From: an uncultured bacterium
Lineage (GTDB): Bacteria > Fidelibacterota > Fidelibacteria > Fidelibacterales > Fidelibacteraceae
Direction of reading: 5' to 3'
DNA: 44,307 bases
Assembly (NCBI GenBank): GCA_964452375.1
Contig: CAYVLJ010000001.1
Coordinates: forward strand, 2,703-47,009
Below are positions 1-15,192 of the stretch, one piece after another. Made by a program: the position numbers and the translations under genes. Position 1 is the first letter of the stretch; each line of letters starts with the position of its first letter. The notes under the pieces were generated by a model, which did no database searches, was not told the origin of the DNA, and saw only the letters and a program-made list of their open reading frames with translations.

Positions 1-483
1 TTTATCGGTGTAATGCTTATTCTTATGAAGGCACCCGCACTGTTGGCCAAAGATACGTTTTCAAAACACAGCTTATCTGCCAATCTTGGTGGTCCCGGAG
101 CGCTTGCAACATTTGAATATCAATATCAAATCCGTTCAAGTGAAAAAAGCAGCTTTTTTCTTACCGCCGGCATGGGAAACGCATTGCTGATGTTTTCCTT
201 TCCTCTCGGATTCAATTATACCTATGGAGATAAAAATCAATTATTGGCGGGCGCTCACTTTGTTCCTCTGGCAATTTATTCCGATCTATTTGGCAGTTTT
301 TTATCTTCTGATCAAAGCGATTCGTGGCAAATAGCCTATGCATTTTCTCCTCGTTTCGGTTATCGCAGAATGATCAACGGCCTTAATGGAGATTCATATT
401 TTCAAATATATTTTTCACCTCTTTTCGGTTTACAGGGCGGATTTTTTCCCAGTGGCGGAATTGGATGGGGAGTATATCTGTAA
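1..483 (+). CDS. small predicted outer-membrane beta-barrel protein, paralog A (N-terminus probably cut by window edge)
   Basis: The reading frame is open back to base 1, with no stop upstream of the listed Met at 13. It shares the opening LSxNxGGP...EYQYQ, a Gly/Tyr/Phe-rich alternating pattern and its length with the next ORF. It has no Cys and a hydrophobic C-terminus (GVYL). Confidence 0.5.
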   Translation, partial: FIGVMLILMKAPALLAKDTFSKHSLSANLGGPGALATFEYQYQIRSSEKSSFFLTAGMGNALLMFSFPLGFNYTYGDKNQLLAGAHFVPLAIYSDLFGSFLSSDQSDSWQIAYAFSPRFGYRRMINGLNGDSYFQIYFSPLFGLQGGFFPSGGIGWGVYL

Positions 484-513
484 TACATTTTATTAGCAAC
501 TCTTGAGGTGAAT

Positions 514-957
514 ATGAAAAAGATCATTATCTTGTTGTTGGTTTTTTGCCTGACTGTTTTTGCCTTTGCGGAAGATAAACCCTACCGTCATGGACTTTCA
601 TTGAACTACGGCGGCCCTTCATCAAAGTTTCATGCTGAATACCAGTACCAGCTCATAGCAAAAGAAAAACACCATTTGGGTGTTTCTGCCGGTGTAGGTT
701 ATATATTTGGCGGCGTCGGTATTCCGATCGGTGTCCAATACCGCTTTGGAAAGATCCATCAGCTTGAAACGGGATTATATTATTCACAACTGGCATCCAG
801 TGTTACGACGAGTTTTAATATTTCCCTGAGATTGGGTTATCGGTTCAACTATAAGCAATTCTTTGCCCATGCTTATGTTTCACCCTGGATGGGTGTCAGT
901 TATTCAGGCTCACCCTGGATGGGATTTGGTATTGGTATGTTTCTTGATTCTTTTTGA
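514..957 (+). CDS. small predicted outer-membrane beta-barrel protein, paralog B (signal peptide)
   Basis: ATG at 514 is preceded by GAGGTG; the listed GTG at 508 is less likely. Signal peptide MKKIIILLLVFCLTVFAFA. Mature part is about 125 aa with the LSLNYGGP...EYQYQ motif and a terminal Phe (LDSF) typical of OMP beta-signals. Confidence 0.6.
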   Translation: MKKIIILLLVFCLTVFAFAEDKPYRHGLSLNYGGPSSKFHAEYQYQLIAKEKHHLGVSAGVGYIFGGVGIPIGVQYRFGKIHQLETGLYYSQLASSVTTSFNISLRLGYRFNYKQFFAHAYVSPWMGVSYSGSPWMGFGIGMFLDSF

Positions 958-987
958 AATTCCATTGCTTTATTATAAATTAATTCT

Positions 988-1860
988 ATGATAAAAAATA
1001 TACTGCTTCGATCATTTCAAATTTTATCCATCATTCTTCTGGCTTTCCTGACAGTCAGCACTTTTATGCCATTGAAAGAGGATGCGGGATTCTTATTTCT
1101 GAATCGTTTTTATGATTCGCCCCTAAATTTCGCCCTGTGGATATTGATGGCGGTATTGCTCGTTGCAGCCGTGCTTTTTAAAGGAATACGTTCACCCCGG
1201 CAGAAATTCCTGCACCTGGCCTTAGCCATTATCATTGTTCTTTTTATTATTGATAAATCGACAAACGAACGTTTTTATATGACGTTAAAAGAGGGAAATA
1301 CCACAGATCTGTCCAATTACATTGATTCTGACCCTGAGATATATGATGTTGATATAAAACTCAAACGTTTTGAGATCGATCTTCACGAAGATGAACAGTC
1401 ACCTAGATCTTATCGCAGTTATCTGAAGCTGAATGATAAAGATGTTGTTCTGGAAGTGAACAAACCGCTGGCGATCGGTCGATATCGCTTGTATCAGTCC
1501 GCTTTTGAAAAGCATTATTATTTTGATCTTCAGATCGGAAGCAAACATTATGAACTTAGTTTTGGTGATACGATAAAGAACGCGCAAGAAAAAATAATCG
1601 TGCTTGATGATTACAACAGCCGTATCAGACATTTCCGTTTGATCGTTGATGAGCAAACGCGTTGGCTGCCACTAAACTCACCGGTTATGATCGACGATGA
1701 CGAGTGGAGCATTACTTCCATTGGCGAGGTTTACAGTTCGGTGATCGAAGTGGTGGAAGTGCGTGGGTTGTTTTGGCTTCTGCTGGCCGGTATTCTTTAT
1801 TTGGCCTTCATGGCCTGGGATTTCTGGAAGCCCAAAAAGCAACAAGAGGAGACGGCTTAA
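988..1860 (+). CDS. ccsB: cytochrome c biogenesis protein, ResB/CcsB-like (short form)
   Basis: N-terminal TM segments, a soluble loop and a C-terminal TM. ResB/Ccs1-type motif VNKPLAIGRYRLYQSAF. The stop overlaps the ccsA start (TAATG, 1858-1862). Confidence 0.65.
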   Translation: MIKNILLRSFQILSIILLAFLTVSTFMPLKEDAGFLFLNRFYDSPLNFALWILMAVLLVAAVLFKGIRSPRQKFLHLALAIIIVLFIIDKSTNERFYMTLKEGNTTDLSNYIDSDPEIYDVDIKLKRFEIDLHEDEQSPRSYRSYLKLNDKDVVLEVNKPLAIGRYRLYQSAFEKHYYFDLQIGSKHYELSFGDTIKNAQEKIIVLDDYNSRIRHFRLIVDEQTRWLPLNSPVMIDDDEWSITSIGEVYSSVIEVVEVRGLFWLLLAGILYLAFMAWDFWKPKKQQEETA

Positions 1861-2612
1861 TGGAAATGATCTTTCTTGTTATTGCGCTTGTTTTTTATCT
1901 CGTGTCCGCCATATTGCGTTTGTTACCGGTAAAAAAACAATATTCGGACTGGTTCTTGCTGCTCGCGGGTTTATCTCACCTGGGCTTGCTGATCACCCGG
2001 TCAGTTCTTGCTAAGCATCCGCCTTTTACGAATATCTACGAAACCTTTCTTTTACTGCCTTTCCTGCTCTTTTTGCGCATAGTTCTCTGGCCGAAACGCC
2101 ATGTTGGGTCTTACGGAATGATCATGACCTTTATTTCTGCGGCTTTTTTAACGGTTGCCCTGATCCTTCCTGCGGATATAAAAACGCCCAAACCCCTGAT
2201 GCCGGCCCTGAACAGCATTTGGATGTACATTCACGTGCCCGCCTATTTCTTTGCCTATATGGCGCTGATCGCGGCATTGGTTTATGCAGTGATGGTTCTG
2301 ACAAAAAAGGACCATGCAATCGGGGAAACAGCTAAGCGTTTGGATGAAGAGCTTAAGATCGCTTTCTTTTTCTTAAATGTCGGTTTAGTAACAGGGGCCG
2401 TTTGGGCCTACGTAAGCTGGGGCAATTACTGGTCCTGGGATCCGAAAGAAACCTGGGCGTTGATCAATGTGCTGGTGTTGTCCTATGTTTTTCATTTGAA
2501 AATACCAAATCCGCAAAAGAAAGCGTGGATCCTGATCATCGCTGTGCTGACGGTAGCTTTCACGTATTGGGGGGTCACTTATATTCTCAGCGGGTTGCAT
2601 AGTTATACATAA
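1860..2612 (+). CDS. ccsA: cytochrome c assembly protein CcsA (system II heme handling)
   Basis: Polytopic membrane protein with the Trp-rich WWD motif WGNYWSWDPKETWAL. The listed ORF start at 1704 is an upstream extension overlapping ccsB. The in-frame ATG at 1860 gives MEMIFLVIAL..., a hydrophobic N-terminus. Confidence 0.85.
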   Translation: MEMIFLVIALVFYLVSAILRLLPVKKQYSDWFLLLAGLSHLGLLITRSVLAKHPPFTNIYETFLLLPFLLFLRIVLWPKRHVGSYGMIMTFISAAFLTVALILPADIKTPKPLMPALNSIWMYIHVPAYFFAYMALIAALVYAVMVLTKKDHAIGETAKRLDEELKIAFFFLNVGLVTGAVWAYVSWGNYWSWDPKETWALINVLVLSYVFHLKIPNPQKKAWILIIAVLTVAFTYWGVTYILSGLHSYT

Positions 2613-2622
2613 GATTTATTGA

Positions 2623-2718
2623 TTTGACTCAAATCGAATTATTAAATTTGAGTCGAATTTAATTGTTATGTTTGAGTCAAATCAAATTGTTATCATTGAG
2701 TCAAACACTTCTATCTTG
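2623..2718. repeat. four tandem copies of a 24-bp repeat with a TGAGTCA/TGACTCA core, upstream of the multiheme cytochrome gene
   Basis: The copies start at 2623, 2647, 2671 and 2695, an exact 24-bp period. Their sequences are TTTGACTCAAATCGAATTATTAAA, TTTGAGTCGAATTTAATTGTTATG, TTTGAGTCAAATCAAATTGTTATC and ATTGAGTCAAACACTTCTATCTTG. Copies 2 and 3 match at 20/24 positions. Confidence 0.8.
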
Positions 2719-2744
2719 CAAATCAAACTCATATATTTTATATT
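2716..2744 (+). promoter_or_regulatory. candidate sigma70-type promoter for the cytochrome operon (TTGCAA-17 nt-TATATT)
   Basis: TTGCAA at 2716-2721, a 17-nt spacer, and TATATT at 2739-2744, about 37 nt before the ATG at 2781. RBS AGGAG lies 5 nt upstream of the start. The -35 element overlaps the last 24-bp repeat copy. Confidence 0.35.
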
Positions 2745-2780
2745 AAATAAAACAAATAATTAATCCCATTAGGAGTCAAT

Positions 2781-4118
2781 ATGAAACGCGTTGCTGTGAT
2801 TTTCATATGTGTGTTTTCTCTGTATCTCATTGCTGAAGAGATCCCTTCCGGAGAACATGCGATGGGGTCAAGAAAGTATTCGGACTATGAAAAACCCGAA
2901 AGCTGTAAAAGTTGTCACACCCGGATCTACCAGCAGTGGTCGCAATCCATGATGTCCCAGGCCTATACCCACCATTGGGATGAGATCGAATACTGGGAAC
3001 TTGCCGTGCCGCATGGTGATAAAGATCCCACCTTCAAGGCTGCCGCAGACGGCTGCAACGGCTGTCATGCTCCGCTGGCCTTTTTGGCCGGTGACGTGCC
3101 GCCGCCGAAACCCGCTGAAAACTCCCGCGCGAATGAAAGTGTGAGCTGCGACCTCTGTCACACGATAACCGGGATCAGCGGCGATCCGGTGAATTTCAAT
3201 TGGATCTCCGAACCCGGACGCACCAAATATGGGGCAAAAGAAGGACTGGAATCTCCGCACCATATTACAAAATTCAATGATATCTATACCGTTGCCGATT
3301 ATTGCGGGTCTTGTCATAACGAGCAAAATCCCTTCGGACTATGGGTTAAGTCCACTCAGATCGAATGGGAAGAAGGACCCTACGCTGAACAAGGTGTCCC
3401 CTGCTTTGTGTGCCATATGCCGAAAGCTCCCGGACGAAGCGCGCCCATGGCGGAAGAAAGTATGGTCGCTCAGCATATTTTTCTCGGCGCTCATAACGAA
3501 GCGAAACTGAAAAGCGCCATCGAGGTATCCATACACCCGGACGAACGGGAGATCCCATATGACGGAGCGGTTGTTTTTCAGGTCGAACTTTTCAATGCCA
3601 AGGCCGGACACAAGATCCCGACCGGTTCGGTCGAGGACCGCATTCTCTGGCTGGATGTCCGCGCCGTTGATGCCGAAGGCAAAGAATATCATCTGCCTGT
3701 AGACCTGAAAGGATTTGAAGGCGAGGAATATACGGTTGCCTCTGATGAACTTGCATACAGCGACATGGGATTTCCATTGGGGATCGAGGATTTTGAAGGC
3801 GTACAGAGAGACGGAGTTCCTGTTGGAAACCGCATTTTCCGCATGCCCTATTTCGACGAGAAAGGGATCATGACTATTCAACAATGGAATACACGCTCAT
3901 TCGGTGTTGATTATCGTGTTGGACCGCGGGAAACAAAACTGGAACATTATACCTGGTATATGCCGGATGATATCGCATTCGGCGATGTGGTCATCACGGC
4001 ACGTTTGTATTACCAAAAACTGGTTAAGCCCGTTGCGGATTTTCTGAATGTCCCGGCGGATGAAAGTGAAATGATATTAATGAATGAAGCCTCAACAACA
4101 ATAGAGGTTTATGATTAA
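2781..4118 (+). CDS. secreted pentaheme c-type cytochrome with a heme-free C-terminal domain
   Basis: Signal peptide. Five CxxCH motifs (CKSCH, CNGCH, CDLCH, CGSCH, CFVCH), all within residues about 42-212. Residues about 213-445 lack Cys. RBS AGGAG precedes the start. Confidence 0.85.
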   Translation: MKRVAVIFICVFSLYLIAEEIPSGEHAMGSRKYSDYEKPESCKSCHTRIYQQWSQSMMSQAYTHHWDEIEYWELAVPHGDKDPTFKAAADGCNGCHAPLAFLAGDVPPPKPAENSRANESVSCDLCHTITGISGDPVNFNWISEPGRTKYGAKEGLESPHHITKFNDIYTVADYCGSCHNEQNPFGLWVKSTQIEWEEGPYAEQGVPCFVCHMPKAPGRSAPMAEESMVAQHIFLGAHNEAKLKSAIEVSIHPDEREIPYDGAVVFQVELFNAKAGHKIPTGSVEDRILWLDVRAVDAEGKEYHLPVDLKGFEGEEYTVASDELAYSDMGFPLGIEDFEGVQRDGVPVGNRIFRMPYFDEKGIMTIQQWNTRSFGVDYRVGPRETKLEHYTWYMPDDIAFGDVVITARLYYQKLVKPVADFLNVPADESEMILMNEASTTIEVYD

Positions 4119-4128
4119 GGAGGCCGGT

Positions 4129-5313
4129 ATGAAAAAGATGAAACTGTTTTTACTTATTGTTTTGATCATCATGTTGTCGGTACAAAGCGCGATGGCGATA
4201 CCTGCGTTCGCCCGGCGATATAAATATTCATGTACTACTTGCCATGATCCCTTTCCACGTTTAAAGGATTATGGAGATGAATTTGCAGGTAACGGTTTTA
4301 TTGAACCGGATGAAGAGCGCGAGCGGGATTACGTTACGGCGGGTGACGACAAGCTTTGGCTGAATCGTGATTTTCCTTTTGCCGTTAGGTTTGATGTATA
4401 CGGACTGGCGGAAACCGGCGGTGACGTCAAGCTCGATCTTCAAACGCCTTACGGTGTTAAGCTTTTAACCGGTGGCACGCTTTACAAGAACATCGGTTAT
4501 TACATGTATTTTTATCTCTTCGAACGCGGTGAAGTAGCCGGGCTGGAAGATGCTTATATCCATTTCGATAATGTATTCAAAAGCAACCTGGATATTCTTG
4601 TTGGCCAATTCCAAACCTGCGACCCCCTTATGAAACGCGAGCTTCGCTTGACCTATGAAGATTATCATGCCTACAAGGTCAAGATCGGCGATTCGAATAT
4701 TAATCTCGCTTATGACCGGGGACTGGCTTTTGCTTACGGCATCGATAAGACCGGCACGGATATCATCGCGACGGTAACCACCGGAAACGGTATTCCGGAA
4801 GCCGGTGTCGATAAACGCTTTGACGCGGATCCCTATAAGAACTTTATGATCAGGGTAGCCCAGGGAATCGGCGAGCATATCAGTATCGGCGGGTTTTATT
4901 ATCGCGGCAAGGAGGATAAGGTCATCGACGAGGTGCTGACACCGGGATTGTCCAATACGGTCACCTATTTTGGACCGGACATTGTTCTGAGTCTCGGAAA
5001 ATTCGTTCTGACCGGACAATATCTGCGACGCCACGATTCCGATCCTCTCTTTACAGGAGGAACGTTCTCTCCCGTTACAACCCACGGTATTGTGGGGGAA
5101 CTTGTTTTTGCACCCAATTATGACCGGTCCAACACTTACTGGACATTATTATACAACCGTATAGATTCCGACCTGCCTACACATGATTACCACACCATCG
5201 CCTTTAGCGGCACATATATGATGGCGCGTAACTTGAGATTGATCGGAGAATATATCTACGACCTGGAAAATACGAACCACATGTTCATTCTGGGACTTAC
5301 CTCTGCATTCTGA
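4129..5313 (+). CDS. Cyc2-like fused monoheme cytochrome c / outer-membrane beta-barrel (porin-cytochrome)
   Basis: ATG at 4129 sits 5 nt after a strong AAGGAGG; the listed start at 4111 overlaps the upstream stop. Signal peptide ends in AMA. A single CTTCH lies 12 residues after the predicted cleavage site (IPAFARRYKYSCTTCH). The remaining about 355 aa are Gly/Tyr/Asp-rich alternating segments with one other Cys and a terminal Phe (GLTSAF). Confidence 0.6.
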   Translation: MKKMKLFLLIVLIIMLSVQSAMAIPAFARRYKYSCTTCHDPFPRLKDYGDEFAGNGFIEPDEERERDYVTAGDDKLWLNRDFPFAVRFDVYGLAETGGDVKLDLQTPYGVKLLTGGTLYKNIGYYMYFYLFERGEVAGLEDAYIHFDNVFKSNLDILVGQFQTCDPLMKRELRLTYEDYHAYKVKIGDSNINLAYDRGLAFAYGIDKTGTDIIATVTTGNGIPEAGVDKRFDADPYKNFMIRVAQGIGEHISIGGFYYRGKEDKVIDEVLTPGLSNTVTYFGPDIVLSLGKFVLTGQYLRRHDSDPLFTGGTFSPVTTHGIVGELVFAPNYDRSNTYWTLLYNRIDSDLPTHDYHTIAFSGTYMMARNLRLIGEYIYDLENTNHMFILGLTSAF

Positions 5314-5398
5314 TATCAACCGGAACCGGATCATCGAAATACTGAATATGCCTTAAAAACACCGTGGTTCAATCGTATCAATTAAAAAAGGATCGCTT

Positions 5399-8300
5399 AT
5401 GAACCGGAATATGTTTTTTAAGTTTTTTTTGATGATGCTTTTATATCCCCTGTTATTGTTATCTGCGACATGGACCCATACGGATGCGGCCACAGAACCG
5501 ATCTCCACCCGGCCTGTGATCTGCGCTGACCCATTGGGACATCTTCACATTGCATGGACGGCCAATGATCCCTACGGGGAAACACTTCATTATGCTACCA
5601 ACCAATCGGGAGATTGGACATATGCCAAACAAGTTGCCGGCGGCTCCAGCAACACGGCATATACACCATCCATAACTGTAGACCGATACGGCTTCCCCTA
5701 TATCGTTGCCAGGTTCTACAGCTATAACTACAATATTAGATACTTTACCAATGCATTTCAAACCTCGTCTTATTGGCTGGGAATGACGGCCATGGGCAAC
5801 GGGCATTATCACGAGTCTTCCATAGAGGTCGATAGTGAAAATAATGCGCATGTCTTCGCTCAGGAAGATACCTGGGGAAGCAATGTGTTTTATCAGAATC
5901 ATGATCTGGCGGATGTTGTGATCGAAGGGGGTACTTCCCAATTTTTTGCCACGGCTATCGATAAAAATGATGTACTGCACTTTTTGGGAAGTCATGAAAA
6001 TAATATCTGGTATACATACAATGACGGAACCGGCTGGAGCACACCGGATTCTATTGATCAACTTGAAATATCGACTTATCATCCGTCGCTCTTCTGCGAC
6101 GGGGATGGCAATCTGCATGCGGTTTTCGCCAGCACGAACGGTATCTATTATACAAATAATGTTTCGGGCGGCTGGAGTGTCCCGGAGCAGGTGGTTACTT
6201 CAGGCATATTTCCAAATGTTGCCGTTGATGAGAACGGCAAAGCACATATCGTTTATTATACGCAAGTCGAATACGGCGGATTGTTTTATGTAAATAACTT
6301 AAGCGGCAGTTGGTCTTCCGGCGAATTCATTGCCTCTATCAATACGGATGCCAGTCCTGCTACCGAAGATGTCGCTCACGTTGAAAGCAAGATCGCTCTT
6401 GATCTGAAGAACAGCACGGTTAATATTGTCTATATTGCTGACGGCAATACGGTCAAAGTAGCTCATACAGATGATTATGACCTCAGAGCAATACACCAAC
6501 ATGATACGACAAGTACCTGTGTCAGCCTGGGTACAATGCCTGAACTTGACACATTAAGCACATCCGTTAGCGGTTCAATAGAACTCATGAATTTTCGTAT
6601 CAGCGACGCAAGCGGGGATGGACTTCCCACCTCGATCGAGGAGATGGTCTTCCAGGCAGGCCCGGGAATGTCCGACGATCTTGTTTTTAATGATGTTTTT
6701 CAAAGTGTCTCGTTGTCGTGCTCAGACGGAAGCAGCTCTTCCTGTTCTGTTTATGGCAATAAAATTCTTGCCGGAACAAAAGACAATATTTGGAAAAATG
6801 TTCCTGATGGCGGCTCGCTTGATTTTACTTTAAGCGGAGTATTCAAAGACCCGCTCACAGATATGGACGGAAAAAGCCTTCAGGTCAAGATCAACGGATT
6901 GAACGAAATAATCGCAGATACCGCCGGTTCGGCATTTAGCAAAACCTGTGCTGATATCTGTTCCGACACGCTGTTGTTCAGAGTAGTCCCCGACCATTTT
7001 ATCTTTTTAAATCTCGGAGATGATTTTTATAACGAGAACCTGATCATTGGTTGGTGGATGCAGCTTCAGATCGTTGATGCCGCCGGGAATGTGGCTACCG
7101 GTGTGTCCGATGTCAACGTGACCCTGTCTGCCGTTGAGCTTGATGGCTTAACCCCAACGTCACTTCAGCTTCAATCTACCGAAACACTCACCAAAACATT
7201 TACCAACGGCGTGGTTAATTGGAACAATATCACCTATCCGGCTTCCGGACAGATCCGCATTCAGGCCAGTTGTGATCTCTTGACTGCAGCATCAGATACG
7301 ATAACCGTTATGCCTTTCAACCGAACGCTTTTGATCACTGCCGATGATACCATCTCGGATTTTCTGAACAGCGAAGGCATCGCACATGATTACTATCACG
7401 AAGGCAATTATCAATTTCCTACCGCAAGCAAGATCCCGGCTTATGATCATATACTAATGTGTCCGTCATTGAATTATGCCTGGTATGTCGATAGCACCAA
7501 GATCCGGTCCTTTCTGGAGAGCGGGACGGATACAAGCAGAAAATCCATGCTTGCGATGGGAGAAAGCGGATTAGGCAATGTTTATGATTCCCCCTTTGCA
7601 AAGGATTGTTTCGGTGCGACGCGCGAACAGATTTTTTCGCACCCCGGAAACGGTCTCACCGGAGTCGCGGATGATCCGGTAACAGACGGTATCCAACTTT
7701 CTGTTCCTGCCGGGAATTTGTATGAAATCATACCCTCACCCGGAGGCGCCACAGCAGTTCTGCATGAAGATCAGACCGATAAGACCGTGGGTACCCGATA
7801 TGACACACCTGCATTCAGAACGATCATGTTAACACCCGAATTTAGAAGTATATCGCCGGATATCGGACGTTCAAATCTTTTTTCTCAGATCATGGCCTGG
7901 TTTGACAGCTACGTTATTCCTGAATATCCTCCCGAATTGGCCGATCTTCCGGATATCAATATGACTGAGGACGTGATCAAACGTATCCCGCTGTCAGATT
8001 GGCATGCATACGTTTCAGATGAAGATACTCCGGCGGATTCTCTTCAATGGATAATTAGCGGATTGAATTTACTGAATTATTCGATCATACATGATACGCT
8101 GATTTTAACACCCTATGAGAATGTTTTCGGAATGGATACTATCTTCGTCACTGTCTCCGATGGTGAATACAATGATACCGATACGGTGCTGGTGACTGTT
8201 GGTCCCGTAAACGATGCACCCGAACCTTTTAACTTGCTTCTGCCAACGAATGGAACAGTCGCACCTGATACGTCATCCTTATTGCTGAGTTGGGAACCTG

Positions 8301-8812
8301 CCGTTGATATCGATGATGATACCCTGTATTATCAACTGCACTTTAGTGCGACAGATTTTGATTCTACGATCTATTTGATGAATACAGTCAATATGATTTT
8401 GGAAGACCTGACATTATTTCCCGCTGACACGACGATCTTGTGGTCGGTCAGCGTCAGTGATCCCGATGATAGTACGGTAACAGCACTTAATGCGCCTTTT
8501 TCATTTTGTGTCACGCATATTGAAGTTTCACTGGCTGAGCGCTTTCCAGAAGATTATGTCCTTCTGCCCTGTTATCCCAATCCCTTTAATCCCCAAACAA
8601 CAATAAGCTTTGGCTTACCGGAAAAAAGTTTTGTTAAAATCTCAGTGTTTGACCTAAACGGAAAACATATAAAAACACTTTTGAATAACATGATAGCAGC
8701 GGGCTTTCATAAAGTAAACTGGAATGCCGGAGATATGCCATCAGGAATATATATCATTGCGATCCATGCGGGGGAATTCGTTAATACGCAAAAAGTCGCC
8801 TTGTTGAAATGA
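5399..8812 (+). CDS. large T9SS-secreted surface protein (N-terminal ~7-blade propeller-like repeats, cadherin-like and FN3-like modules, T9SS C-terminal domain)
   Basis: Signal peptide. About seven repeats of roughly 45 aa of the form D..G..H(I/V)(V/A)(Y/F)...Y..N.SG.WS. A VTVGPVNDAPE cadherin-like strand and a LSWEPAVD FN3-like segment. C-terminus YPNPFNPQTTISF...PSGIYIIAIHAG...KVALLK is typical of a T9SS sorting domain. Confidence 0.8.
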   Translation: MNRNMFFKFFLMMLLYPLLLLSATWTHTDAATEPISTRPVICADPLGHLHIAWTANDPYGETLHYATNQSGDWTYAKQVAGGSSNTAYTPSITVDRYGFPYIVARFYSYNYNIRYFTNAFQTSSYWLGMTAMGNGHYHESSIEVDSENNAHVFAQEDTWGSNVFYQNHDLADVVIEGGTSQFFATAIDKNDVLHFLGSHENNIWYTYNDGTGWSTPDSIDQLEISTYHPSLFCDGDGNLHAVFASTNGIYYTNNVSGGWSVPEQVVTSGIFPNVAVDENGKAHIVYYTQVEYGGLFYVNNLSGSWSSGEFIASINTDASPATEDVAHVESKIALDLKNSTVNIVYIADGNTVKVAHTDDYDLRAIHQHDTTSTCVSLGTMPELDTLSTSVSGSIELMNFRISDASGDGLPTSIEEMVFQAGPGMSDDLVFNDVFQSVSLSCSDGSSSSCSVYGNKILAGTKDNIWKNVPDGGSLDFTLSGVFKDPLTDMDGKSLQVKINGLNEIIADTAGSAFSKTCADICSDTLLFRVVPDHFIFLNLGDDFYNENLIIGWWMQLQIVDAAGNVATGVSDVNVTLSAVELDGLTPTSLQLQSTETLTKTFTNGVVNWNNITYPASGQIRIQASCDLLTAASDTITVMPFNRTLLITADDTISDFLNSEGIAHDYYHEGNYQFPTASKIPAYDHILMCPSLNYAWYVDSTKIRSFLESGTDTSRKSMLAMGESGLGNVYDSPFAKDCFGATREQIFSHPGNGLTGVADDPVTDGIQLSVPAGNLYEIIPSPGGATAVLHEDQTDKTVGTRYDTPAFRTIMLTPEFRSISPDIGRSNLFSQIMAWFDSYVIPEYPPELADLPDINMTEDVIKRIPLSDWHAYVSDEDTPADSLQWIISGLNLLNYSIIHDTLILTPYENVFGMDTIFVTVSDGEYNDTDTVLVTVGPVNDAPEPFNLLLPTNGTVAPDTSSLLLSWEPAVDIDDDTLYYQLHFSATDFDSTIYLMNTVNMILEDLTLFPADTTILWSVSVSDPDDSTVTALNAPFSFCVTHIEVSLAERFPEDYVLLPCYPNPFNPQTTISFGLPEKSFVKISVFDLNGKHIKTLLNNMIAAGFHKVNWNAGDMPSGIYIIAIHAGEFVNTQKVALLK

Positions 8813-8925
8813 TTGAATCATAATAAAAAACGATGCATCCCGGAAGCTAAACGAAGAGTTGCTTATCCCGGATCGACCCAAATGCTGTCGAGTGTAATTT
8901 ATTAGTGGAATTATATCCGGATATT

Positions 8926-10206
8926 TTACTTTTTCTTTTTATCTTTGATCTTAACTTCAAGAATCTCATCCCACCTCGTTGTATATGATCTTGAGCGCAT
9001 ATTCTGTTTCAAGGCATGTTTGTCTTTCAAGCCTTGATCTGCGATCTTAAGAGTGTTTCGTCCGAATTTATCATTGACCAGGTCCAGCGCTTCAACCAGG
9101 CGATTGTCTTTGTCATTTAAAGTATTGTCCGTAAAAAGATCTTCCTGCAAAGCCTCCGCCTGCTGAAAATCCATCAAGATCACGCCGGCTTTTTTATAAT
9201 CGTAACCGGGTTTATATATCTTTTTTAACGCTTCTTTGGCTTGTTTTATCAGCACGATCGAGTTCTGCGTTGCCGGGAATTTTATAACGATGTTTCGCTT
9301 GTACTGCGGCAGATCCTCCCTGAAATAATTGGTATGAATGAATACCATCATCGAGGATGCGAAAGAATGCTGTTTCCTAAGTTTGACCGCACAGGTCGCG
9401 CAATGAGTGGCAACTGCCTGTTCCAGGTAATCATAATCCCGGATCATTTCTCCGAACGATCGTGCGGTGCAAATGGCTTTTTTGGGTTTTGTTGTCGATT
9501 CAAAGATCACGGAAGGTTCACCCTCGAGTTCTTTCTTGATCCTTAGTCCGACAACCGTCAATTCTCGAAGCACCAGATCGTCATTCAGGCGGATCAACTC
9601 ACCCGCGGTTTCAACACCCATCATGGCCAGTTTTTGTGTGGTCCTTCGTCCTATGCCCCAGACCTTCCCGACAGGGAATTCATTAAGAACCTTCTTGATT
9701 TGTCTTTGCTCTGAAAGCGCCATGCATCCTTTTAGAGCCGGATCTTTTTTTGCCAAATGAGTCGCGATCTTTGCCAGGGTCTTGGTTGGAGCAATACCGA
9801 TGCTGACGGGAATACCGGTGTACTTACCCACTAGATCTTTGAGATGCCGTGCTATCTTCAACATGGATATATCGTTGCCCTCTTCCAGTTCAAGAAAAGC
9901 TTCGTCGATGGAATATATCTCGATATCTTTTGAATACTCGCTCAAGATATTCATGACACGCCGGCTCATGTCGCCGTATAATGCAAAATTAGTGGAAAAG
10001 ACTTTCACGCCTTCTGCTTCGACCAATTGTTTATACTTGAAAGCAGGAGCACCCATGGGAATGCCGAGGGCTTTAGCCTCATTGGAACGTGCAATGACGC
10101 AACCGTCATTATTTGATAAAACAACAACGGGCTTCCCGTTCAGGTCGGGAGAAAATACTCGTTCACATGAGGCATAGAAGTTGTTGCAGTCGACAAGCGC
10201 GATCAT
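8926..10206 (-). CDS. umuC: Y-family translesion DNA polymerase V catalytic subunit UmuC
   Basis: N-terminus [18 protein letters not shown] and the overall Y-family layout. A 4-nt overlap with the upstream umuD. Confidence 0.9.
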
Positions 10207-10655
10207 TTTTTCATCTTCTTGATCACATAAGTAACAATGCCCCAGATAATGAAGTCATTATCTTCCCCAACTGGAATAGGGGCATAATCCTCATTTTCCG
10301 GCAGCAAATAGCAGGTGTTTTTTTCCACATGTACGCGTTTGACGGTAAAATCTCCGTCGATATAACATACCGCAATGGCATCGTTCTTTGGGTCCAGAGA
10401 ACGGTCGATCACTAAAACATCCCCATCGTGGATATCGATATTCTGCATCGAGTTCCCTTTAACGCGACCATAGAATGTGGCATTGGGATTTTTGATCAAT
10501 TCTTTGTTAAGATCCAGACTCATGTCTATGTAATCGTCAGCCGGAGAAGGGAATCCGGCTGAAATATTCTCAGCATACGGCAGTTCCATTTCGGAACCGC
10601 TGTCTGCGGTGTAAAAATCAATCTTATTGTGTTTTTTAATTCGCGAAAGTTTCAT
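10203..10655 (-). CDS. umuD: UmuD-like S24 self-cleaving peptidase (LexA/UmuD family)
   Basis: Ala-Gly cleavage site (NISAGFPSP), a Ser (GNSM) and Lys (TVKRV) catalytic dyad. Size is 150 aa with no N-terminal HTH domain. Translationally coupled to umuC. Confidence 0.85.
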
Positions 10656-12031: not shown

Positions 12032-12937
12032 TTACTTCTTCCCTTTCTGTATATCCATTATTCTTTCCAGTTTTTTTGATTCCGCTTCCAGCCATTTTTT
12101 GAATGAATCCACATCCCCCTTGTTGCGAATTTCGGCCAATACCTGCATTCCGGGCGTTTCAAAATTCTCGTCAATTCGCAATTTAACACCCTTGGATAAA
12201 GAAATATTATTCAAATGATCACTCATTTGTTTTCTAAAATTCGCGATCGTCGGGTATCTCATTTCATACAGCGATCGGCGTATTTCCTGAAGCTTTTGTG
12301 ATGATGACATTTCTTCATTTTCTGGCGTTTGTTGCAGTGAAGAGTTTTTCCATACATCGCCGACTGAGATCTTTTTTATTATACTGATATCTTGTAAAAG
12401 CGTTGCAATGGATTCCAACAGGTTAATTCCCGGATTCATTTCAAGCAGGGGATCTAAAAGCTTCCGGATGTCGGGGTTCGAAAAACGCAGGATGCGTTTT
12501 AAAGGAACGTTTTTAGAAATTAAATAGTATTTCCAATTCTTTTCATAATAGTTCAGTATTTCAATGTTGTCCCACTGATGTTTCCCGATCCCCATTTTTT
12601 TTGACCATACTTCTTTATTATGATCGGGGGCATATTTTTCAAGCAGACGCATGAATTTCGCAAGGTCGAAGTGGTGATGCTGCTGACTTAGCTTCAGCAT
12701 ATCAGATAATACGGATTCATATGTGCTGTCTTCCGAATAAACCAAAGCATGAATAACACCCGATCCTTTTTTTATTTTTTTATTCAACAATACGGGAATA
12801 TAGCGTTTTCCGTTTTTCCAGAATACCGGTAATTCATTGGGCTTATCCGTTTCAATATCATGATAGCCGTCATGGTAATCAAAGCGCTTATCGTTAAAAT
12901 CAATGCTGTCTGAGTCTATGGTTTTGTACTCTCGCAT
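12032..12937 (-). CDS. hypothetical protein (orphan; weak ParB/Srx-like N-terminal opening)
   Basis: A long ORF tightly packed with the downstream EamA gene (1-nt gap), highly charged and lacking TM segments. The opening YKTIDSDSIDFNDKRF loosely resembles ParB-N-type domains. No confident family assignment. Confidence 0.6.
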   Translation of the reverse strand: MREYKTIDSDSIDFNDKRFDYHDGYHDIETDKPNELPVFWKNGKRYIPVLLNKKIKKGSGVIHALVYSEDSTYESVLSDMLKLSQQHHHFDLAKFMRLLEKYAPDHNKEVWSKKMGIGKHQWDNIEILNYYEKNWKYYLISKNVPLKRILRFSNPDIRKLLDPLLEMNPGINLLESIATLLQDISIIKKISVGDVWKNSSLQQTPENEEMSSSQKLQEIRRSLYEMRYPTIANFRKQMSDHLNNISLSKGVKLRIDENFETPGMQVLAEIRNKGDVDSFKKWLEAESKKLERIMDIQKGKK

Positions 12938-13613: not shown

Positions 13614-13787
13614 TGTGTATAACCTGTGGATAATTGAAATATCAACGCTTAGAAAACTGTTTATTGTTTTTTCATTCCGAACAAATATTTCCTATAAGTG
13701 TTTGTTTTTTATGAAACAATAATACTACTCGGGGTGTGTAAAAACTGTTGGTATAATGTGGATAACTATGGTTTAGGGTGTGGATAA
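13614..13787. promoter_or_regulatory. DnaA-box cluster / candidate oriC and dnaA autoregulatory region
   Basis: Perfect TGTGGATAA (complement of TTATCCACA) at 13625-13633, 13757-13765 and 13779-13787. Degenerate boxes are TGTGTATAA at 13614-13622 and TGTGTAAAA at 13735-13743. All are in the same orientation. AT-rich tracts at about 13552-13612 and 13640-13725 are candidate unwinding regions. Confidence 0.7.
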
Positions 13788-15192
13788 CTTAAATTTTGAT
13801 GATCGTGTAACAGAAGGGATACAATGGGAAGCTTGTTTAAAGGATCTTGAGGGTTCTTTAAACCCCCAATCCTTCTCATCGTGGTTTTCACCATTGCAAT
13901 TTTGCTCAAATGAAAATGACGTGCTAACCTTGGCGGCGCCGAATAAATTTCATATTGAATTTATTGAATATAATTACTGGGATACCTTATCCCCGATCAT
14001 TGATAAGCATTTTCCTTCCAATAAAAAGGTCCAATTCATTATCAACACCCGGCTTCAGTCGGAAAGAGATATATCCGGAACGGTACAAGAAAACGTATCG
14101 CGGCAAAAGGAACAGGATACTATGTCCATTCCCAAGGCTGAGCCACCTAAACCCGATGTTTATTCGACTTTCAACAGTCGTTTTACTTTTGAAGAATTTG
14201 TGGAGGGGCCGCACAACCAATTTGCCAAGGTTGCGGCCTCTTCTGTTTCTGAAAATCCCGGACGCACTTATAACCCGCTTTTCATTTATGGCGGTACAGG
14301 GCTTGGAAAAACCCATTTGCTTCAGGCGATCGGCAACAGAGCATATGCAAGAAATCCCTACAGCCGGGTTATCTATGTTTCTATTGACACTTTCATGCGC
14401 GACTTTATTGACGCCATAAAGAACAATAAAAAAAATGACTTTAGTTTGTTGTATAAACAGGCAGATATCCTGCTCGTGGACGATGTTCAGTTCTTAAAGT
14501 CAAGAGAAGGGACACAGGAGCAGTTCTTTCACATATTTAACGATTTGCTCCAGCGAGATAAACAAATTGTTATTACTTCGGACAGGCCTCCGAAGGAGTT
14601 AGAGGGTTTGGAAGAACGCCTTGTGTCCCGTTTTCTTTCCGGTTTGATGGTCGATGTTCAGGCACCTGATCTGGAATCCCGGATCGCCATTCTTCAACAT
14701 AAGACTATCATGGAAAACCTGGATATACCCTATGAGGTCATTGAATTCATTGCTCAGAACGTTTCCTCCAATATCCGCGAATTGGAAGGAACTTTAACGA
14801 CCATGCTTGCCCGTTCTTCTCTTAATCATATTGATATTACGCTCGGCCTTGCGAAATCCGTTTTGATGGACATGAAAGGTGTTAAGCGAGATAGAATTAT
14901 TTCTATAGACACGGTGCAAAAGGTTGTAACGCGTTATTACAAAGTTTCTGAAAATGAGATCATCGGTAAAGGTCGTCGTAAAGAAGTTGCTTTGGCAAGA
15001 CAGGTCATGATGTACCTTTGCAGAGAGATGTGCAACGCTTCTTTAAAGACTATCGGACTGCGCCTTGGTGGGCGGGACCATACCACGGTTATGTATGGTG
15101 TTCGCGAGATCGGCAAGCGCACCCGGAATGATGAAGCATTTAAAAAAGAAGTTGCGCTCATTACGCAGCAGATCGAATTCGAAGGCGATTAA
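13780..15192 (+). CDS. dnaA: chromosomal replication initiator protein DnaA
   Basis: N-terminal WEACLKDLEGSLNPQSFSSWFSPL, Walker A GGTGLGKTHLL, Walker B LLVDDVQF, and a C-terminal DNA-binding domain (GGRDHTTVMYG). The GTG start lies inside a perfect DnaA box. Confidence 0.95.
   Translation: MDNLNFDDRVTEGIQWEACLKDLEGSLNPQSFSSWFSPLQFCSNENDVLTLAAPNKFHIEFIEYNYWDTLSPIIDKHFPSNKKVQFIINTRLQSERDISGTVQENVSRQKEQDTMSIPKAEPPKPDVYSTFNSRFTFEEFVEGPHNQFAKVAASSVSENPGRTYNPLFIYGGTGLGKTHLLQAIGNRAYARNPYSRVIYVSIDTFMRDFIDAIKNNKKNDFSLLYKQADILLVDDVQFLKSREGTQEQFFHIFNDLLQRDKQIVITSDRPPKELEGLEERLVSRFLSGLMVDVQAPDLESRIAILQHKTIMENLDIPYEVIEFIAQNVSSNIRELEGTLTTMLARSSLNHIDITLGLAKSVLMDMKGVKRDRIISIDTVQKVVTRYYKVSENEIIGKGRRKEVALARQVMMYLCREMCNASLKTIGLRLGGRDHTTVMYGVREIGKRTRNDEAFKKEVALITQQIEFEGD

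Follow-up and report, generated by a model that had tools for sequence, protein, structure and literature searches.

A conserved gene pair encoding a pentaheme cytochrome and a Cyc2-family cytochrome-porin, a probable electron conduit across the outer membrane, in a Marinimicrobia bacterium

Introduction

The electron carriers of published Cyc2 pathways are Cyc1, rusticyanin and other monoheme or diheme proteins. Oxidation of Fe(II) has been reported for Cyc2 proteins of all three clusters (PMC8406198), and FeGenie surveys have disclosed Cyc2 homologues in Krumholzibacteria, KSB1, Calditrichota and Eisenbacteria. One sample of these surveys, SWIR Dive96, is also the source of the MAGs behind two of the loci compared here (L065 and L066). 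Pentaheme cytochromes are known from other contexts. The polysulfide reductase MccSep of Geobacter, a periplasmic pentaheme selenoprotein, has a cap-plus-Ig-stem architecture, and its variants C239H and U325A/C are inactive (PMC13510729). Its gene adjoins the porin gene extI, and extH and extKL, presumably also extI, are reported to be Fur-regulated (PMC5877670). For cytochrome c552 of Thermochromatium tepidum, a role in sulfur metabolism has been suggested.

We analysed a stretch of 44,307 nucleotides (the window) from a Marinimicrobia (Fidelibacterota) bacterium of anoxic water, whose first seven genes had been proposed to form a single locus for extracellular electron transfer.

Results

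Gene content of the locus

The 5′ part of the window contains seven open reading frames on the + strand (13-483, 508-957, 988-1860, 1860-2612, 2781-4118, 4129-5313 and 5399-8812), separated in this order by 24, 30, -1, 168, 10 and 85 nt. Together with a repeat, the features are:

1..483, + strand, small outer-membrane beta-barrel paralogue 1, 5′ end cut by the window edge (frame open from nt 1)
508..957, + strand, small outer-membrane beta-barrel paralogue 2, 149 aa (Pfam OMP_b-brl PF13505)
988..1860, + strand, ccsB (ResB-like, short 290-aa form), system II cytochrome c maturation (Pfam ResB PF05140, E 1.9e-13)
1860..2612, + strand, ccsA, system II heme handling and ligation subunit (Pfam Cytochrom_C_asm, E 9e-32)
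2622..2705, no strand, 24-bp tandem repeat, 3.5 copies, with the palindrome TTTGAGTCAAA in each unit (TRF score 91)
2781..4118, + strand, periplasmic pentaheme cytochrome c (PHC) of the c552/ExtKL fold (five CXXCH, 5ZE8 match, Foldseek)
4129..5313, + strand, cyc2, outer-membrane monoheme cytochrome fused to a 16-strand porin (motifs, AF2, Foldseek, BLASTP, hhalign)
5399..8812, + strand, 1137-aa T9SS-sorted surface protein (Por_Secre_tail, residues 1059-1133)

All seven co-directional genes with their short gaps were thus found where the original prediction had placed them, and ORF, domain and motif checks bore out nearly all of its sequence observations. The first ORF is present but incomplete, as its frame runs past the 5′ end of the window; the sister strain L008 possesses the full paralogue 1 of 163 aa including an MKK... 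signal peptide that is absent from the window. The two small barrels are indeed paralogous (29% identity, E 1e-15), and paralogue 2 matched OMP_b-brl with an E value of 1.9e-8 (35.1 bits, cut-off 28.7). ccsB and ccsA form the anticipated system II pair, the stop codon of the former and the start codon of the latter overlapping in TAATG (1858-1862). CcsA contains the WWD motif WGNYWSWD at residue 187 with His residues on its flanks; its score against NCBIfam TIGR03144 (146.8 bits) lay under the cut-off of 187.6. Export of the 1137-aa protein by the T9SS was corroborated by its C-terminal sorting domain (37.6 bits, cut-off 27). A scan of its full sequence revealed no CXXCH motif. Two further T9SS cargo genes reside elsewhere in the window, which makes the adjacency to one of them unremarkable. 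The T9SS gene is followed by umuCD.

The cytochrome genes do not reach the GC content of 53-63% that had been estimated by eye. In a windowed run, the maximum of any 1-kb segment was 0.52, and the pentaheme gene and cyc2 have values of 0.498 and 0.467, respectively, against a mean of 0.435 (sd 0.027) for the 33 genes of the window. Moreover, the AT-rich region near 12.5 kb used for comparison is atypical because dnaA and its DnaA boxes lie next to it. Base composition is therefore weak evidence for horizontal acquisition.

Four exact matches to TTGAGTCRAA were detected in the 168-nt gap, all of them clustered in the repeat array, which is common to the window and L008 only. From its sequence and position, the array is a candidate operator upstream of the pentaheme gene. 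The gap with its repeat and palindromes probably divides two transcription units.

The pentaheme cytochrome

The 2781-4118 product (445 aa) contains exactly five CXXCH motifs, where 0.001 would be expected by chance, in agreement with its earlier assignment as a pentaheme cytochrome. Its N-terminal domain is predicted to bind five hemes, and an Ig-like beta-sandwich makes up the C-terminal domain. PDB entry 5ZE8 was found with E values of 1e-8 (single sequence) and 9e-13 (profile) and was also the top Foldseek match (E 3e-11). The NCBIfam ExtKL model gave 48.7 bits (E 4e-13), under the family cut-off of 250. All 71 distinct PHC homologues have kept the five CXXCH motifs. The conserved His residues (64, 65, 78, 160, 161, 232, 238 and 277) are sufficient for bis-His ligation of every heme, and all five hemes are probably ligated in this way. 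Bis-His hemes usually have low potentials. The closest solved relative of PHC is termed low-potential by Chen et al. (2019). With low-potential hemes in PHC and a Cyc2 heme near +200 mV, outward electron flow would be favoured over inward flow.

The Cyc2 protein

The 4129-5313 product comprises 394 aa with a signal peptide and harbors a single CXXCH (residues 35-39) ahead of the predicted barrel. Its mature N-terminus, AIPAFARRYKYSCTTCHDPFPRL, fits the motifs of Keffer 2021, with AIPAFARRY upstream and PRL downstream of the heme site. The AF2 model contains 16 strands (residues 85-393, pTM 0.71) and retrieved OmpU, OmpC and OprO-type porins in Foldseek (E 1e-11); the heme domains of both this protein and the pentaheme protein were poorly predicted. 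BLASTP revealed a Gallionellaceae homologue with 31% identity (E 2e-46), and hhalign aligned the protein over its full length with the Gallionellaceae-type Cyc2 (E 6.9e-54). This full-length homology extends to proteins of Gallionellaceae, Thiobacillaceae and Nitrospinota containing the canonical AIPxFARQY motif. On the basis of its motifs, predicted barrel and full-length homology, the protein matches the published definition of Cyc2, which goes beyond the mere Cyc2-likeness originally suggested for this fused monoheme cytochrome/beta-barrel. The ATG of cyc2 at 4129 is located 10 nt past the PHC stop codon and is preceded by a strong ribosome-binding site, the Shine-Dalgarno sequence AAGGAGG.

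Conservation of the gene pair

Synteny was studied in 88 loci of Marinimicrobia, KSB1, Latescibacterota, Krumholzibacteriota, Calditrichota and Eisenbacteria, representing at least six phylum-level groups. The pentaheme gene lies directly upstream of cyc2 on the same strand, at a distance of 13-312 nt, in 87 of them; in the only other locus the contig begins 74 nt before cyc2. Across phyla, the two proteins exhibit an unusually high identity of 55-60% and 61-70%. The conserved unit is the two genes, pentaheme plus cyc2, and we found no published report of this pair or its neighbourhood. Many of the loci originate from anoxic and sulfidic habitats (Zodletone spring, Black Sea at 750 m), others from samples taken at depth in stratified lakes (Tobar, 13.5-16.5 m). 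In sulfidic water, little dissolved Fe(II) or oxidant is present.

ccsBA is next to the pair in about one quarter of the 88 loci, in three layouts (split co-directional, split divergent, or fused downstream), with ccsB adjoining the pair in loci of the Marinimicrobia type. It is a genuine but looser functional neighbour. The remaining genes behave differently. Mini-barrels, with the same distribution for both paralogues, were only found in the window, L008 and L012, and a full-length homologue of the T9SS protein only in the window and L008. In related Marinimicrobia, hutI directly precedes ccsB where the window has the mini-barrels, and DJ-1/PfpI or umuC takes the position of the T9SS gene, while the downstream umuCD, cupin and EamA genes are the same. 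Neither the mini-barrels nor the T9SS protein belongs to the conserved module; both are insertions specific to the lineage. Hence, the predicted coupling of a cytochrome-porin to a secreted pentaheme cytochrome held, but the seven genes are not conserved together. The near-invariant pairing, the identity of Cyc2 and the looser coupling of ccsBA make the logic of a porin-cytochrome conduit reasonable.

Discussion

In our judgement a conduit across the outer membrane, composed of Cyc2 and the pentaheme protein, is the likely best explanation of the locus. Its functional core would be the two-gene module at 2781-5313, probably one operon. The first gene is predicted to encode a secreted soluble cytochrome with the fold of T. 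tepidum c552 and Geobacter ExtKL, and the second a 16-strand porin of the Cyc2 family with one c-type heme on its N-terminal domain. In this minimal conduit, electrons would pass between the Cyc2 heme and a dissolved redox species outside the cell, and the pentaheme protein would extend the path through the periplasm. Judged by its three characterised homologues, Cyc2 would most likely oxidise dissolved Fe(II) at the cell surface; we infer both this step and an inward flow of the electrons. The ccsBA genes directly upstream would provide the system II machinery attaching heme to both proteins, and the mini-barrels and the T9SS protein probably have no part in the conduit. Among the ORFs and domains of the window, no gene for an inner-membrane partner or terminal oxidase was found near the pair. 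Given its recurrent neighbours elsewhere, a protective role against Fe(II)/O2 seems at least as plausible as lithotrophic growth.

An alternative is that the host FCB bacteria, which are mostly anaerobic, use the pair not as an energy-conserving iron oxidase but as the envelope arm of a defence against oxidative or iron stress. Either surface Fe(II) would be removed and its electrons fed into periplasmic reduction of O2 or H2O2, or cellular reducing power would be exported via low-potential hemes, for which the conserved His residues of PHC are suitable, to quench external oxidants. The reading arises from an unbiased census, in which the two ORFs flanking the pair most closely on either side were assigned to Pfam families at 80 species-level loci. 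Ranked after cytochrome c maturation genes, the top neighbours were desulfoferrodoxin (8), Fe/Mn superoxide dismutase (7) and nitroreductase (7), with HAD-type hydrolases (7) and ODP/metallo-beta-lactamase-type proteins (6) also frequent; AhpC (3+4), ferritin (2), rubrerythrin (2) and DJ-1 (2) occurred as well. Arrangements vary by group: ferritin-SOR-AhpC-[pair]-SOD in KSB1-type loci, Trx-peroxiredoxin-[pair] in Latescibacterota and [pair]-DJ-1 in Marinimicrobia. SOR and SOD were not among the top families of a control set 5.5-10 kb off; however, most of their cases may stem from one KSB1-related clade and thus represent few independent events. AhpC and rubrerythrin also topped the control set and are therefore not specific to the pair. 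The case is entirely one of gene neighbours, and according to tblastn about three quarters of the loci have none of this kind; in the window, the T9SS gene and then umuCD occupy the place. We consider this defence rather unlikely.

Far less probable is a polysulfide or sulfur oxidoreductase like MccSep, whose substrate the porin would admit, as proposed for ExtI. Such a function would agree with the homology of PHC to the ExtKL model, the common cap-plus-Ig-stem architecture, the adjoining porin gene in Geobacter, the sulfidic nature of several source habitats and the role suggested for c552, the fold relative of PHC. However, the catalytic Sec/Cys site is replaced by an invariant Ser (VEMTNHAGHSIPDGU of MccSep aligns with VELFNAKAGHKIPTGS of the window), and PHC has no conserved Cys beyond its five CXXCH motifs, so that the His/Cys-ligated active heme is missing. 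In MccSep, the C239H and U325A/C variants show no activity. In addition, the ExtKL score is far under its cut-off, and the porin is a Cyc2 with its own heme, not of the ExtI type.

It is similarly hard to credit that the pair serves iron acquisition by reducing extracellular Fe(III), the Fe(II) formed entering via the Cyc2 pore. Ferritin and ZIP-family transporter genes among the neighbours, the Fur regulation of extH and extKL and the probably low potential of the PHC hemes would fit, but TonB, Feo and siderophore genes were not among the top neighbour families of the 80-locus census. Moreover, Fe(II) is seldom limiting in anoxic habitats, and we know of no characterised Cyc2 that runs in the Fe(III)-reducing direction.

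The original proposal of one integrated locus, in which barrels and T9SS protein aid the cytochromes, had in its favour the co-directional genes with short gaps, the predicted envelope location of every product and a mini-barrel homologue at the matching position in a second Marinimicrobia species (L012), but it is largely refuted by synteny (mini-barrels missing in 85 and the T9SS protein in 86 of 88 loci, with different genes at both positions in close relatives whose flanks are otherwise identical) and, given also the heme-free T9SS protein, the other T9SS cargo genes of the genome and the repeat-containing 168-nt gap dividing the cluster, appears highly improbable.

How, then, does the putative Cyc2-pentaheme conduit compare with known systems? 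It shares with Mtr/Pcc the genetic coupling of a multiheme cytochrome of the periplasm to a barrel in the outer membrane, across which electrons would be moved. Mtr/Pcc complexes consist of a larger heme-free porin sheathing an 8-10-heme cytochrome, and an extracellular multiheme lipoprotein, whereas here the 16-strand barrel itself carries a heme, the partner has five hemes and there is no surface cytochrome. The proposed likeness thus applies to the functional logic; none of the defining parts of Mtr/Pcc was found, the Pfam MtrC-domain match (26.1) being under the threshold of 30.

[quoted passage not shown] PHC and ExtKL/MccSep are both periplasmic and have an Ig-like stem topped by a five-heme cap and a homologous catalytic-residue loop, which contains Ser in PHC and Sec/Cys in ExtKL/MccSep; the heme-ligating Cys of MccSep has no conserved counterpart. 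Both genes adjoin an outer-membrane porin gene, but only the porin of the window type carries heme, and rhodanese, ExtJ, bc-type and larger multiheme genes are absent from the window locus.

The closest agreement is with Cyc2 itself. Cyc2PV-1 of Mariprofundus, Cyc2 of Acidithiobacillus ferrooxidans and Cyt572 of Leptospirillum likewise have a signal peptide and, in the N-terminal part, just one CXXCH, and known Cyc2 proteins share with the window protein AxPxFAR..Y before and PxL after the heme site, the 16-strand porin and a length slightly below 400 aa. The window protein differs by an Arg in place of the Gln/Lys of the published consensus and also in length, the Gallionellaceae type exceeding it by about 30-40 aa. 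Unlike the classic Cyc2 hosts, its hosts are heterotrophic FCB-group bacteria of anoxic habitats and not known iron oxidisers. The cyc2 gene of the window type is always preceded by a dedicated pentaheme cytochrome gene, which is not the case at the one Gallionellaceae locus inspected.

Gene layout of the locus

The original prediction described seven co-directional genes in 1-8812, and seven ORFs were indeed found there on the + strand:

1-483, + strand, small beta-barrel protein
508-957, + strand, second small beta-barrel protein
988-1860, + strand, ccsB
1860-2612, + strand, ccsA
2622-2705, 24-bp tandem repeat, 3.5 copies, in the gap from ccsA to the pentaheme gene
2781-4118, + strand, pentaheme cytochrome gene (445 aa)
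4129-5313, + strand, cyc2 (394 aa)
5399-8812, + strand, giant T9SS protein (1137 aa)

The gaps between the ORFs are, in order, 24, 30, -1, 168, 10 and 85 nt. The overlap claimed for ccsB and ccsA is present as TAATG at 1858-1862, in which the stop codon of ccsB runs into the start codon of ccsA. A strong ribosome-binding site (AAGGAGG) lies ahead of the cyc2 ATG at 4129, and the pentaheme gene stops 10 nt before it. In the first ORF the reading frame is already open at nt 1. Since its version in the sister strain (L008) is full length (163 aa) and possesses a signal peptide, the window edge evidently removes the first few codons. The two small proteins, supposed to be paralogous, share 29% identity (E 1e-15), the second one being a match to OMP_b-brl of Pfam.

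The system II maturation pair was recovered as predicted, by ResB (E 1.9e-13) and Cytochrom_C_asm (E 9e-32). CcsA contains the WWD motif WGNYWSWD with His residues on its flanks and reached 146.8 bits with TIGR03144, which is under the equivalog cut-off of 187.6, while CcsB (290 aa) matches only the middle of the 486-position ResB model. Short CcsB proteins of 248-291 aa also occur in other Marinimicrobia (loci L004 and L005). T9SS export of the 1137-aa protein, also claimed, agrees with a C-terminal sorting domain detected by Por_Secre_tail (residues 1059-1133; 37.6 bits, cut-off 27) and TIGR04183 (37.2 bits, cut-off 23). T9SS cargo is common in this genome, and the window encodes further examples:

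35312-37639, - strand, T9SS-sorted BNR/Ycf48-like repeat protein
37820-40996, - strand, T9SS-sorted M6-family metallopeptidase with PKD and Big_9 domains

Every unit of the tandem repeat at 2622-2705 contains the palindrome TTTGAGTCAAA. The array resembles a multi-site operator and may be regarded as a candidate for one. A search of 77 distinct regions upstream of the pentaheme gene for a common operator yielded AT-rich k-mers only, the TGAGTCA repeat being confined to the window and the sister strain. Promoter and terminator counts in 1-9000 were about those of shuffled sequence, in a scan whose coverage does not extend to FCB promoters; Rfam and tRNA scans across the window gave no match. 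Convergent with the giant T9SS gene, a umuC/umuD-type translesion polymerase pair is located at 8926-10655 on the - strand. Such a pair comes after cyc2, or after DJ-1, in the Marinimicrobia loci L004, L011, L012 and L082.

The 394-aa product is a predicted cytochrome-porin of the Cyc2 family

Keffer et al. 2021 (PMC8406198) defined Cyc2 by an N-terminal signal peptide, only one CXXCH near the N-terminus, the motif AXPXFAR[Q/K][T/Y] directly upstream of CXXCH, PXL four residues after it, a 16-strand C-terminal porin and a minimum length of 365 aa. The 394-aa product had no match in Pfam or NCBIfam. As read from the sequence, it starts with the signal peptide MKKMKLFLLIVLIIMLSVQSAMA (basic n-region, hydrophobic core, A-x-A site), cleaved before IP, so that the mature N-terminus is AIPAFARRYKYSCTTCHDPFPRL. 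Its single heme motif, CTTCH, occupies residues 35-39, and C35, C38 and H39 do not vary among 40 homologues. The upstream motif A-I-P-A-F-A-R-R-Y, followed by KYS-CTTCH, fits the Cyc2 pattern at 8/9 positions, with Arg at the [Q/K] position, for which reason a strict pattern screen would miss the window protein. FARKY is found in a few members of the clade, and FARQY or FARKY in distant full-length relatives. Downstream of the heme site the sequence reads CTTCH-DPF-PRL, P43 and L45 being invariant.

An AF2 model based on 40 homologues (mean pLDDT 69.7, pTM 0.71) showed 16 strands in residues 85-393, with Phe as the C-terminal residue, and a poorly modelled heme domain (residues 17-82), as expected without the cofactor. 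The best Foldseek matches in the PDB were 16-strand general and phosphate porins (OmpU, OmpC/OmpK36, OprO) with E values down to 8e-12. The prediction of a beta-barrel for 4129-5313, which had been named as a test, is thus borne out by both the strands and the porin matches.

No solved Cyc2 structure was among the PDB sequences searched, and the link to canonical Cyc2 was made via distant representatives and a Gallionellaceae homologue. The clade profile retrieved 2,736 relatives from 1.84 billion representatives, and the canonical motif is present in distant full-length matches, e.g. AIPVFARQYNMTCVACHAAFPRLN. A second family, which carries the canonical motif, contains proteins of Gallionellaceae, Thiobacillaceae, Acidiferrobacterales and Nitrospinota. 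In BLASTP the window protein aligned with the Gallionellaceae protein P0295 over residues 6-384 (31% identity, E 2e-46), and hhalign of the clade profile (A1) with the Gallionellaceae-type profile (A6) gave a probability of 100% (E 6.9e-54, 357 columns). Barrel blocks common to both families are EDAY/EDAW, GQFQxSD, RExRLT, YDRG, NGNGI, LLYN and RNxK/R. [quoted passage not shown]

The pentaheme cytochrome is best read as an electron carrier

The 445-aa protein carries five CXXCH motifs behind a type I signal peptide, as expected for the secreted pentaheme cytochrome originally proposed. One CXXCH is present in the 394-aa protein and none in any other window gene, the chance expectation for a protein of 445 aa being about 0.001. 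Pfam and NCBIfam returned nothing stronger than weak multiheme-family matches. Exactly five CXXCH were counted in all 71 distinct homologues from the loci, in which eight further His residues (64, 65, 78, 160, 161, 232, 238 and 277) are conserved to at least 96%, a number that would allow bis-His ligation at every heme. The sole significant sequence match in the PDB was the pentaheme cytochrome c552 of Thermochromatium tepidum (5ZE8; E 1e-8 with the single sequence, 9e-13 with the profile). The AF2 model was poor in the heme domain and confident in a C-terminal beta-sandwich (residues 240-445); by Foldseek 5ZE8 was again far ahead (E 3e-11; next match 2e-4).

The ExtKL model NF040886 of NCBIfam also matched the 445-aa protein (E 4e-13, 48.7 bits, below the curated cut-off of 250). 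A 2025 paper placed c552, Geobacter ExtKL and proteins of cable bacteria in one pentaheme cytochrome family, and according to a 2026 paper (PMC13510729), ExtKL (MccSep) is a periplasmic polysulfide reductase with a distal Cys ligand (C239) on heme 2 and a catalytic selenocysteine (U325) in a loop of the Ig-like domain. A PDB sequence search found no MccSep structure. When the MccSep Sec peptide VEMTNHAGHSIPDGUPTPNR was aligned by eye with the window sequence VELFNAKAGHKIPTGSVEDR, Ser stood at the Sec position. This residue, S283 in the window loop GHKIPTG-S, which corresponds to G-H-x-I-P-x-G-[U/C] of MccSep/ExtKL, is invariant in 36/36 aligned homologues, and beyond the ten CXXCH cysteines no Cys is conserved to 90% or more in the 71 homologues. 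With Ser at the Sec/Cys position and no conserved heme-ligating Cys, a polysulfide reductase of the MccSep type was rejected. A protein that has the MccSep fold and lacks both catalytic hallmarks is, from its sequence, best read as an electron carrier.

The conserved unit is Cyc2 with its pentaheme partner

The closest named relatives of the 394-aa protein are MAGs of Candidatus Marinimicrobia/Neomarinimicrobiota/Fidelibacterota, the nearest being the sister strain from a Lake El Tobar sample at 13.5 m (96% identity). A scan with one genome per species detected the clade in at least 251 species-level genomes. The best 80 of these 251 are all MAGs, belonging to Neomarinimicrobiota/Fidelibacterota, Krumholzibacteriota, Latescibacterota, KSB1, Calditrichota, Eisenbacteria and Zhuqueibacterota. 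At 90% identity the clade falls into about 1,600 protein clusters, and its hosts are heterotrophs of anoxic waters and sediments.

In the neighbourhoods of six homologues from different phyla, a multiheme gene of about 445 aa was located directly upstream of the cytochrome-porin gene, whereas the remaining genes varied. By tblastn over 88 loci (87 loci and the window), the pentaheme gene was found on the same strand 13-312 nt 5' of cyc2 in 87; the lone exception is a contig starting 74 nt before cyc2. At the one Gallionellaceae cyc2 locus inspected, the pentaheme gene is absent upstream. The conserved unit is Cyc2 together with a dedicated pentaheme partner, and the two are strictly coupled genetically.

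Homologues of ccsB/ccsA were detected beside the pair in about 22 of the 88 loci, chiefly Marinimicrobia-like ones. In a Pfam census of 80 species-level loci, 15 upstream ORFs had CcsA and 10 had ResB, and there were four downstream matches. Three of the latter are ORFs of about 1,040-1,090 aa directly 3' of cyc2, apparently fused CcsBA, recognised by ccsA tblastn and by ResB and Cytochrom_C_asm:

L077, 11282-14410, apparent fused CcsBA
L080, 2131-5316, apparent fused CcsBA
L081, 4261-7539, apparent fused CcsBA

Maturation genes are thus next to the pair in three arrangements, an observation in favour of a functional link.

The small barrels occur only in the window, the sister strain and L012 (one copy), and the giant T9SS protein only in the window and the sister strain, other loci matching its sorting domain alone. 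In the Marinimicrobia locus L004, a histidine-utilisation cluster (FTCD and amidohydrolase genes) lies directly 5' of ccsB, where the sister strain has hutI; its pair is followed by DJ-1/PfpI and then by umuC, umuD, cupin and EamA, the genes that follow the giant T9SS gene in the window. The same flanks in related Marinimicrobia indicate that the small barrel genes and the giant T9SS gene are insertions in a conserved backbone. Of the integrated seven-gene locus that had been proposed, the coupling of pentaheme cytochrome and Cyc2 and the link to the maturation genes persisted, while the association with T9SS and the small barrels did not: across the window and its relatives the pair was kept in 87/88 loci, the small barrels in 3/88 and the giant T9SS gene in 2/88.

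Base composition

It had been suggested from their GC content that the cytochrome genes might have been horizontally acquired. Of the 33 window genes, the pentaheme gene is the richest in GC (0.498) and cyc2 reaches 0.467, the mean being 0.435 (sd 0.027); the top 1-kb window has a GC of 0.52. The AT-rich stretch used for comparison adjoins the following gene:

13780-15192, dnaA

The three perfect DnaA boxes of the window, at 13625, 13757 and 13779, all fall within 13625-13787, and a box with one mismatch is also situated just upstream of dnaA (13614-13787 region). This stretch has the lowest GC of the window (0.35-0.38), and 13614-15192 is probably the replication origin region. Given dnaA and its boxes, the low-GC comparison stretch is origin-proximal and atypical. 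The backbone of ccsBA, the pair and umuCD is also present in related Marinimicrobia. In view of the GC values, the atypical comparison and the common backbone, the suggestion was abandoned; gene GC, 1-kb GC and the backbone in relatives make no case for a recent horizontal acquisition. Between EamA and the region upstream of dnaA, a 301-aa protein of low GC (0.38) is encoded at 12032-12937 on the - strand; at the matching position L004 has a 310-aa product without a Pfam family on record.

Possible function of the pair

Cyc2 and the pentaheme cytochrome would form a conduit across the outer membrane. By analogy with three characterised Cyc2 proteins (PMC8406198), the likeliest reaction would be that dissolved Fe(II) is oxidised at the surface and its electrons pass to the periplasmic carrier. 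No inner-membrane partner is encoded nearby in the window. Bis-His hemes generally have low potentials, and a low potential is also ascribed to c552, the closest relative of the carrier with a solved structure. From a low-potential carrier, electrons would more readily move outward, onto a Cyc2 heme near +200 mV.

The gene neighbours raise a serious rival, which we do not adopt as the main conclusion and consider rather unlikely: the pair might be a first-line envelope defence against oxidative or iron stress in anaerobes of the FCB group and not a lithotrophic iron oxidase. It might then, as doubtfully, quench O2 and peroxide in a reaction coupled either to the removal of Fe(II) at the surface or to an export of cellular reductant, and a co-regulation with superoxide reductase (desulfoferrodoxin, SOR), SOD, peroxiredoxin, rubrerythrin and ferritin is a similarly tentative part of it. 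When Pfam families were counted in the two ORFs closest to the pair on either side (80 species-level loci), the commonest neighbours after the maturation genes were desulfoferrodoxin (8) and Fe/Mn SOD (7), along with nitroreductase and HAD-type hydrolases, seven each, and six ODP/metallo-beta-lactamase-type proteins. Less common were AhpC (3+4), ferritin (2), rubrerythrin (2) and DJ-1 (2). KSB1-type loci show the order ferritin-SOR-AhpC-pair-SOD on a single strand (e.g., L001 6485-12134, L031, L059 and L063), Latescibacterota thioredoxin-peroxiredoxin-pair, and Marinimicrobia pair-DJ-1. SOR and SOD were not among the top families of control ORFs 5.5-10 kb away. However, these control ORFs were headed by AhpC (5) and rubrerythrin (3), which are thereby ruled out as specific neighbours, and a single clade probably accounts for many of the SOR/SOD loci, which would then represent few independent events.

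Relation to known systems

Cyc2 is the main marker gene for calling iron oxidisers in metagenomes, and its function beyond the well-studied clades was regarded as uncertain by Keffer et al. (PMC8406198). The present clade is very highly conserved, has an invariant pentaheme partner and occurs in heterotrophs from anoxic settings. The pair offers a concrete two-protein system for probing the role of Cyc2 in organisms other than iron oxidisers, and could answer in which direction electrons flow, which redox potentials the hemes have and how a porin with a single heme docks a multiheme carrier in the periplasm. If the pair did serve defence, metagenomic Cyc2 counts in these phyla would be misread as iron-oxidising metabolism, and the surveys would need re-reading.

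FeGenie-based surveys have already listed Cyc2 homologues in Krumholzibacteria, KSB1, Calditrichota and Eisenbacteria, one of them covering the SWIR Dive96 sample from which two of our MAGs (L065 and L066) originate; Cyc2 was thus already known from these phyla. We found no paper on the invariant pentaheme partner, its relation to c552/ExtKL or the stress-gene neighbourhood, and literature searches on Cyc2 with pentaheme cytochromes or oxidative stress and on Cyc2 in Marinimicrobia gave no description of the pair.

Mtr/Pcc systems consist of a large heme-free porin, a periplasmic cytochrome with at least eight hemes and an extracellular multiheme lipoprotein. In contrast, the window protein is a 16-strand barrel with a heme of its own, its partner has five hemes, and there is no third cytochrome in the window; the DmsE and OmcA/MtrC models gave about 20 bits against cut-offs near 200. 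With MccSep/ExtKL, the pentaheme protein shares five CXXCH and a C-terminal Ig-like domain. In the Geobacter ext cluster (PMC5877670), the porin gene extI adjoins the homologous pentaheme gene, as in the pair. There, however, the porin is heme-free and the cytochrome is an enzyme, whereas the window porin carries a heme of its own.
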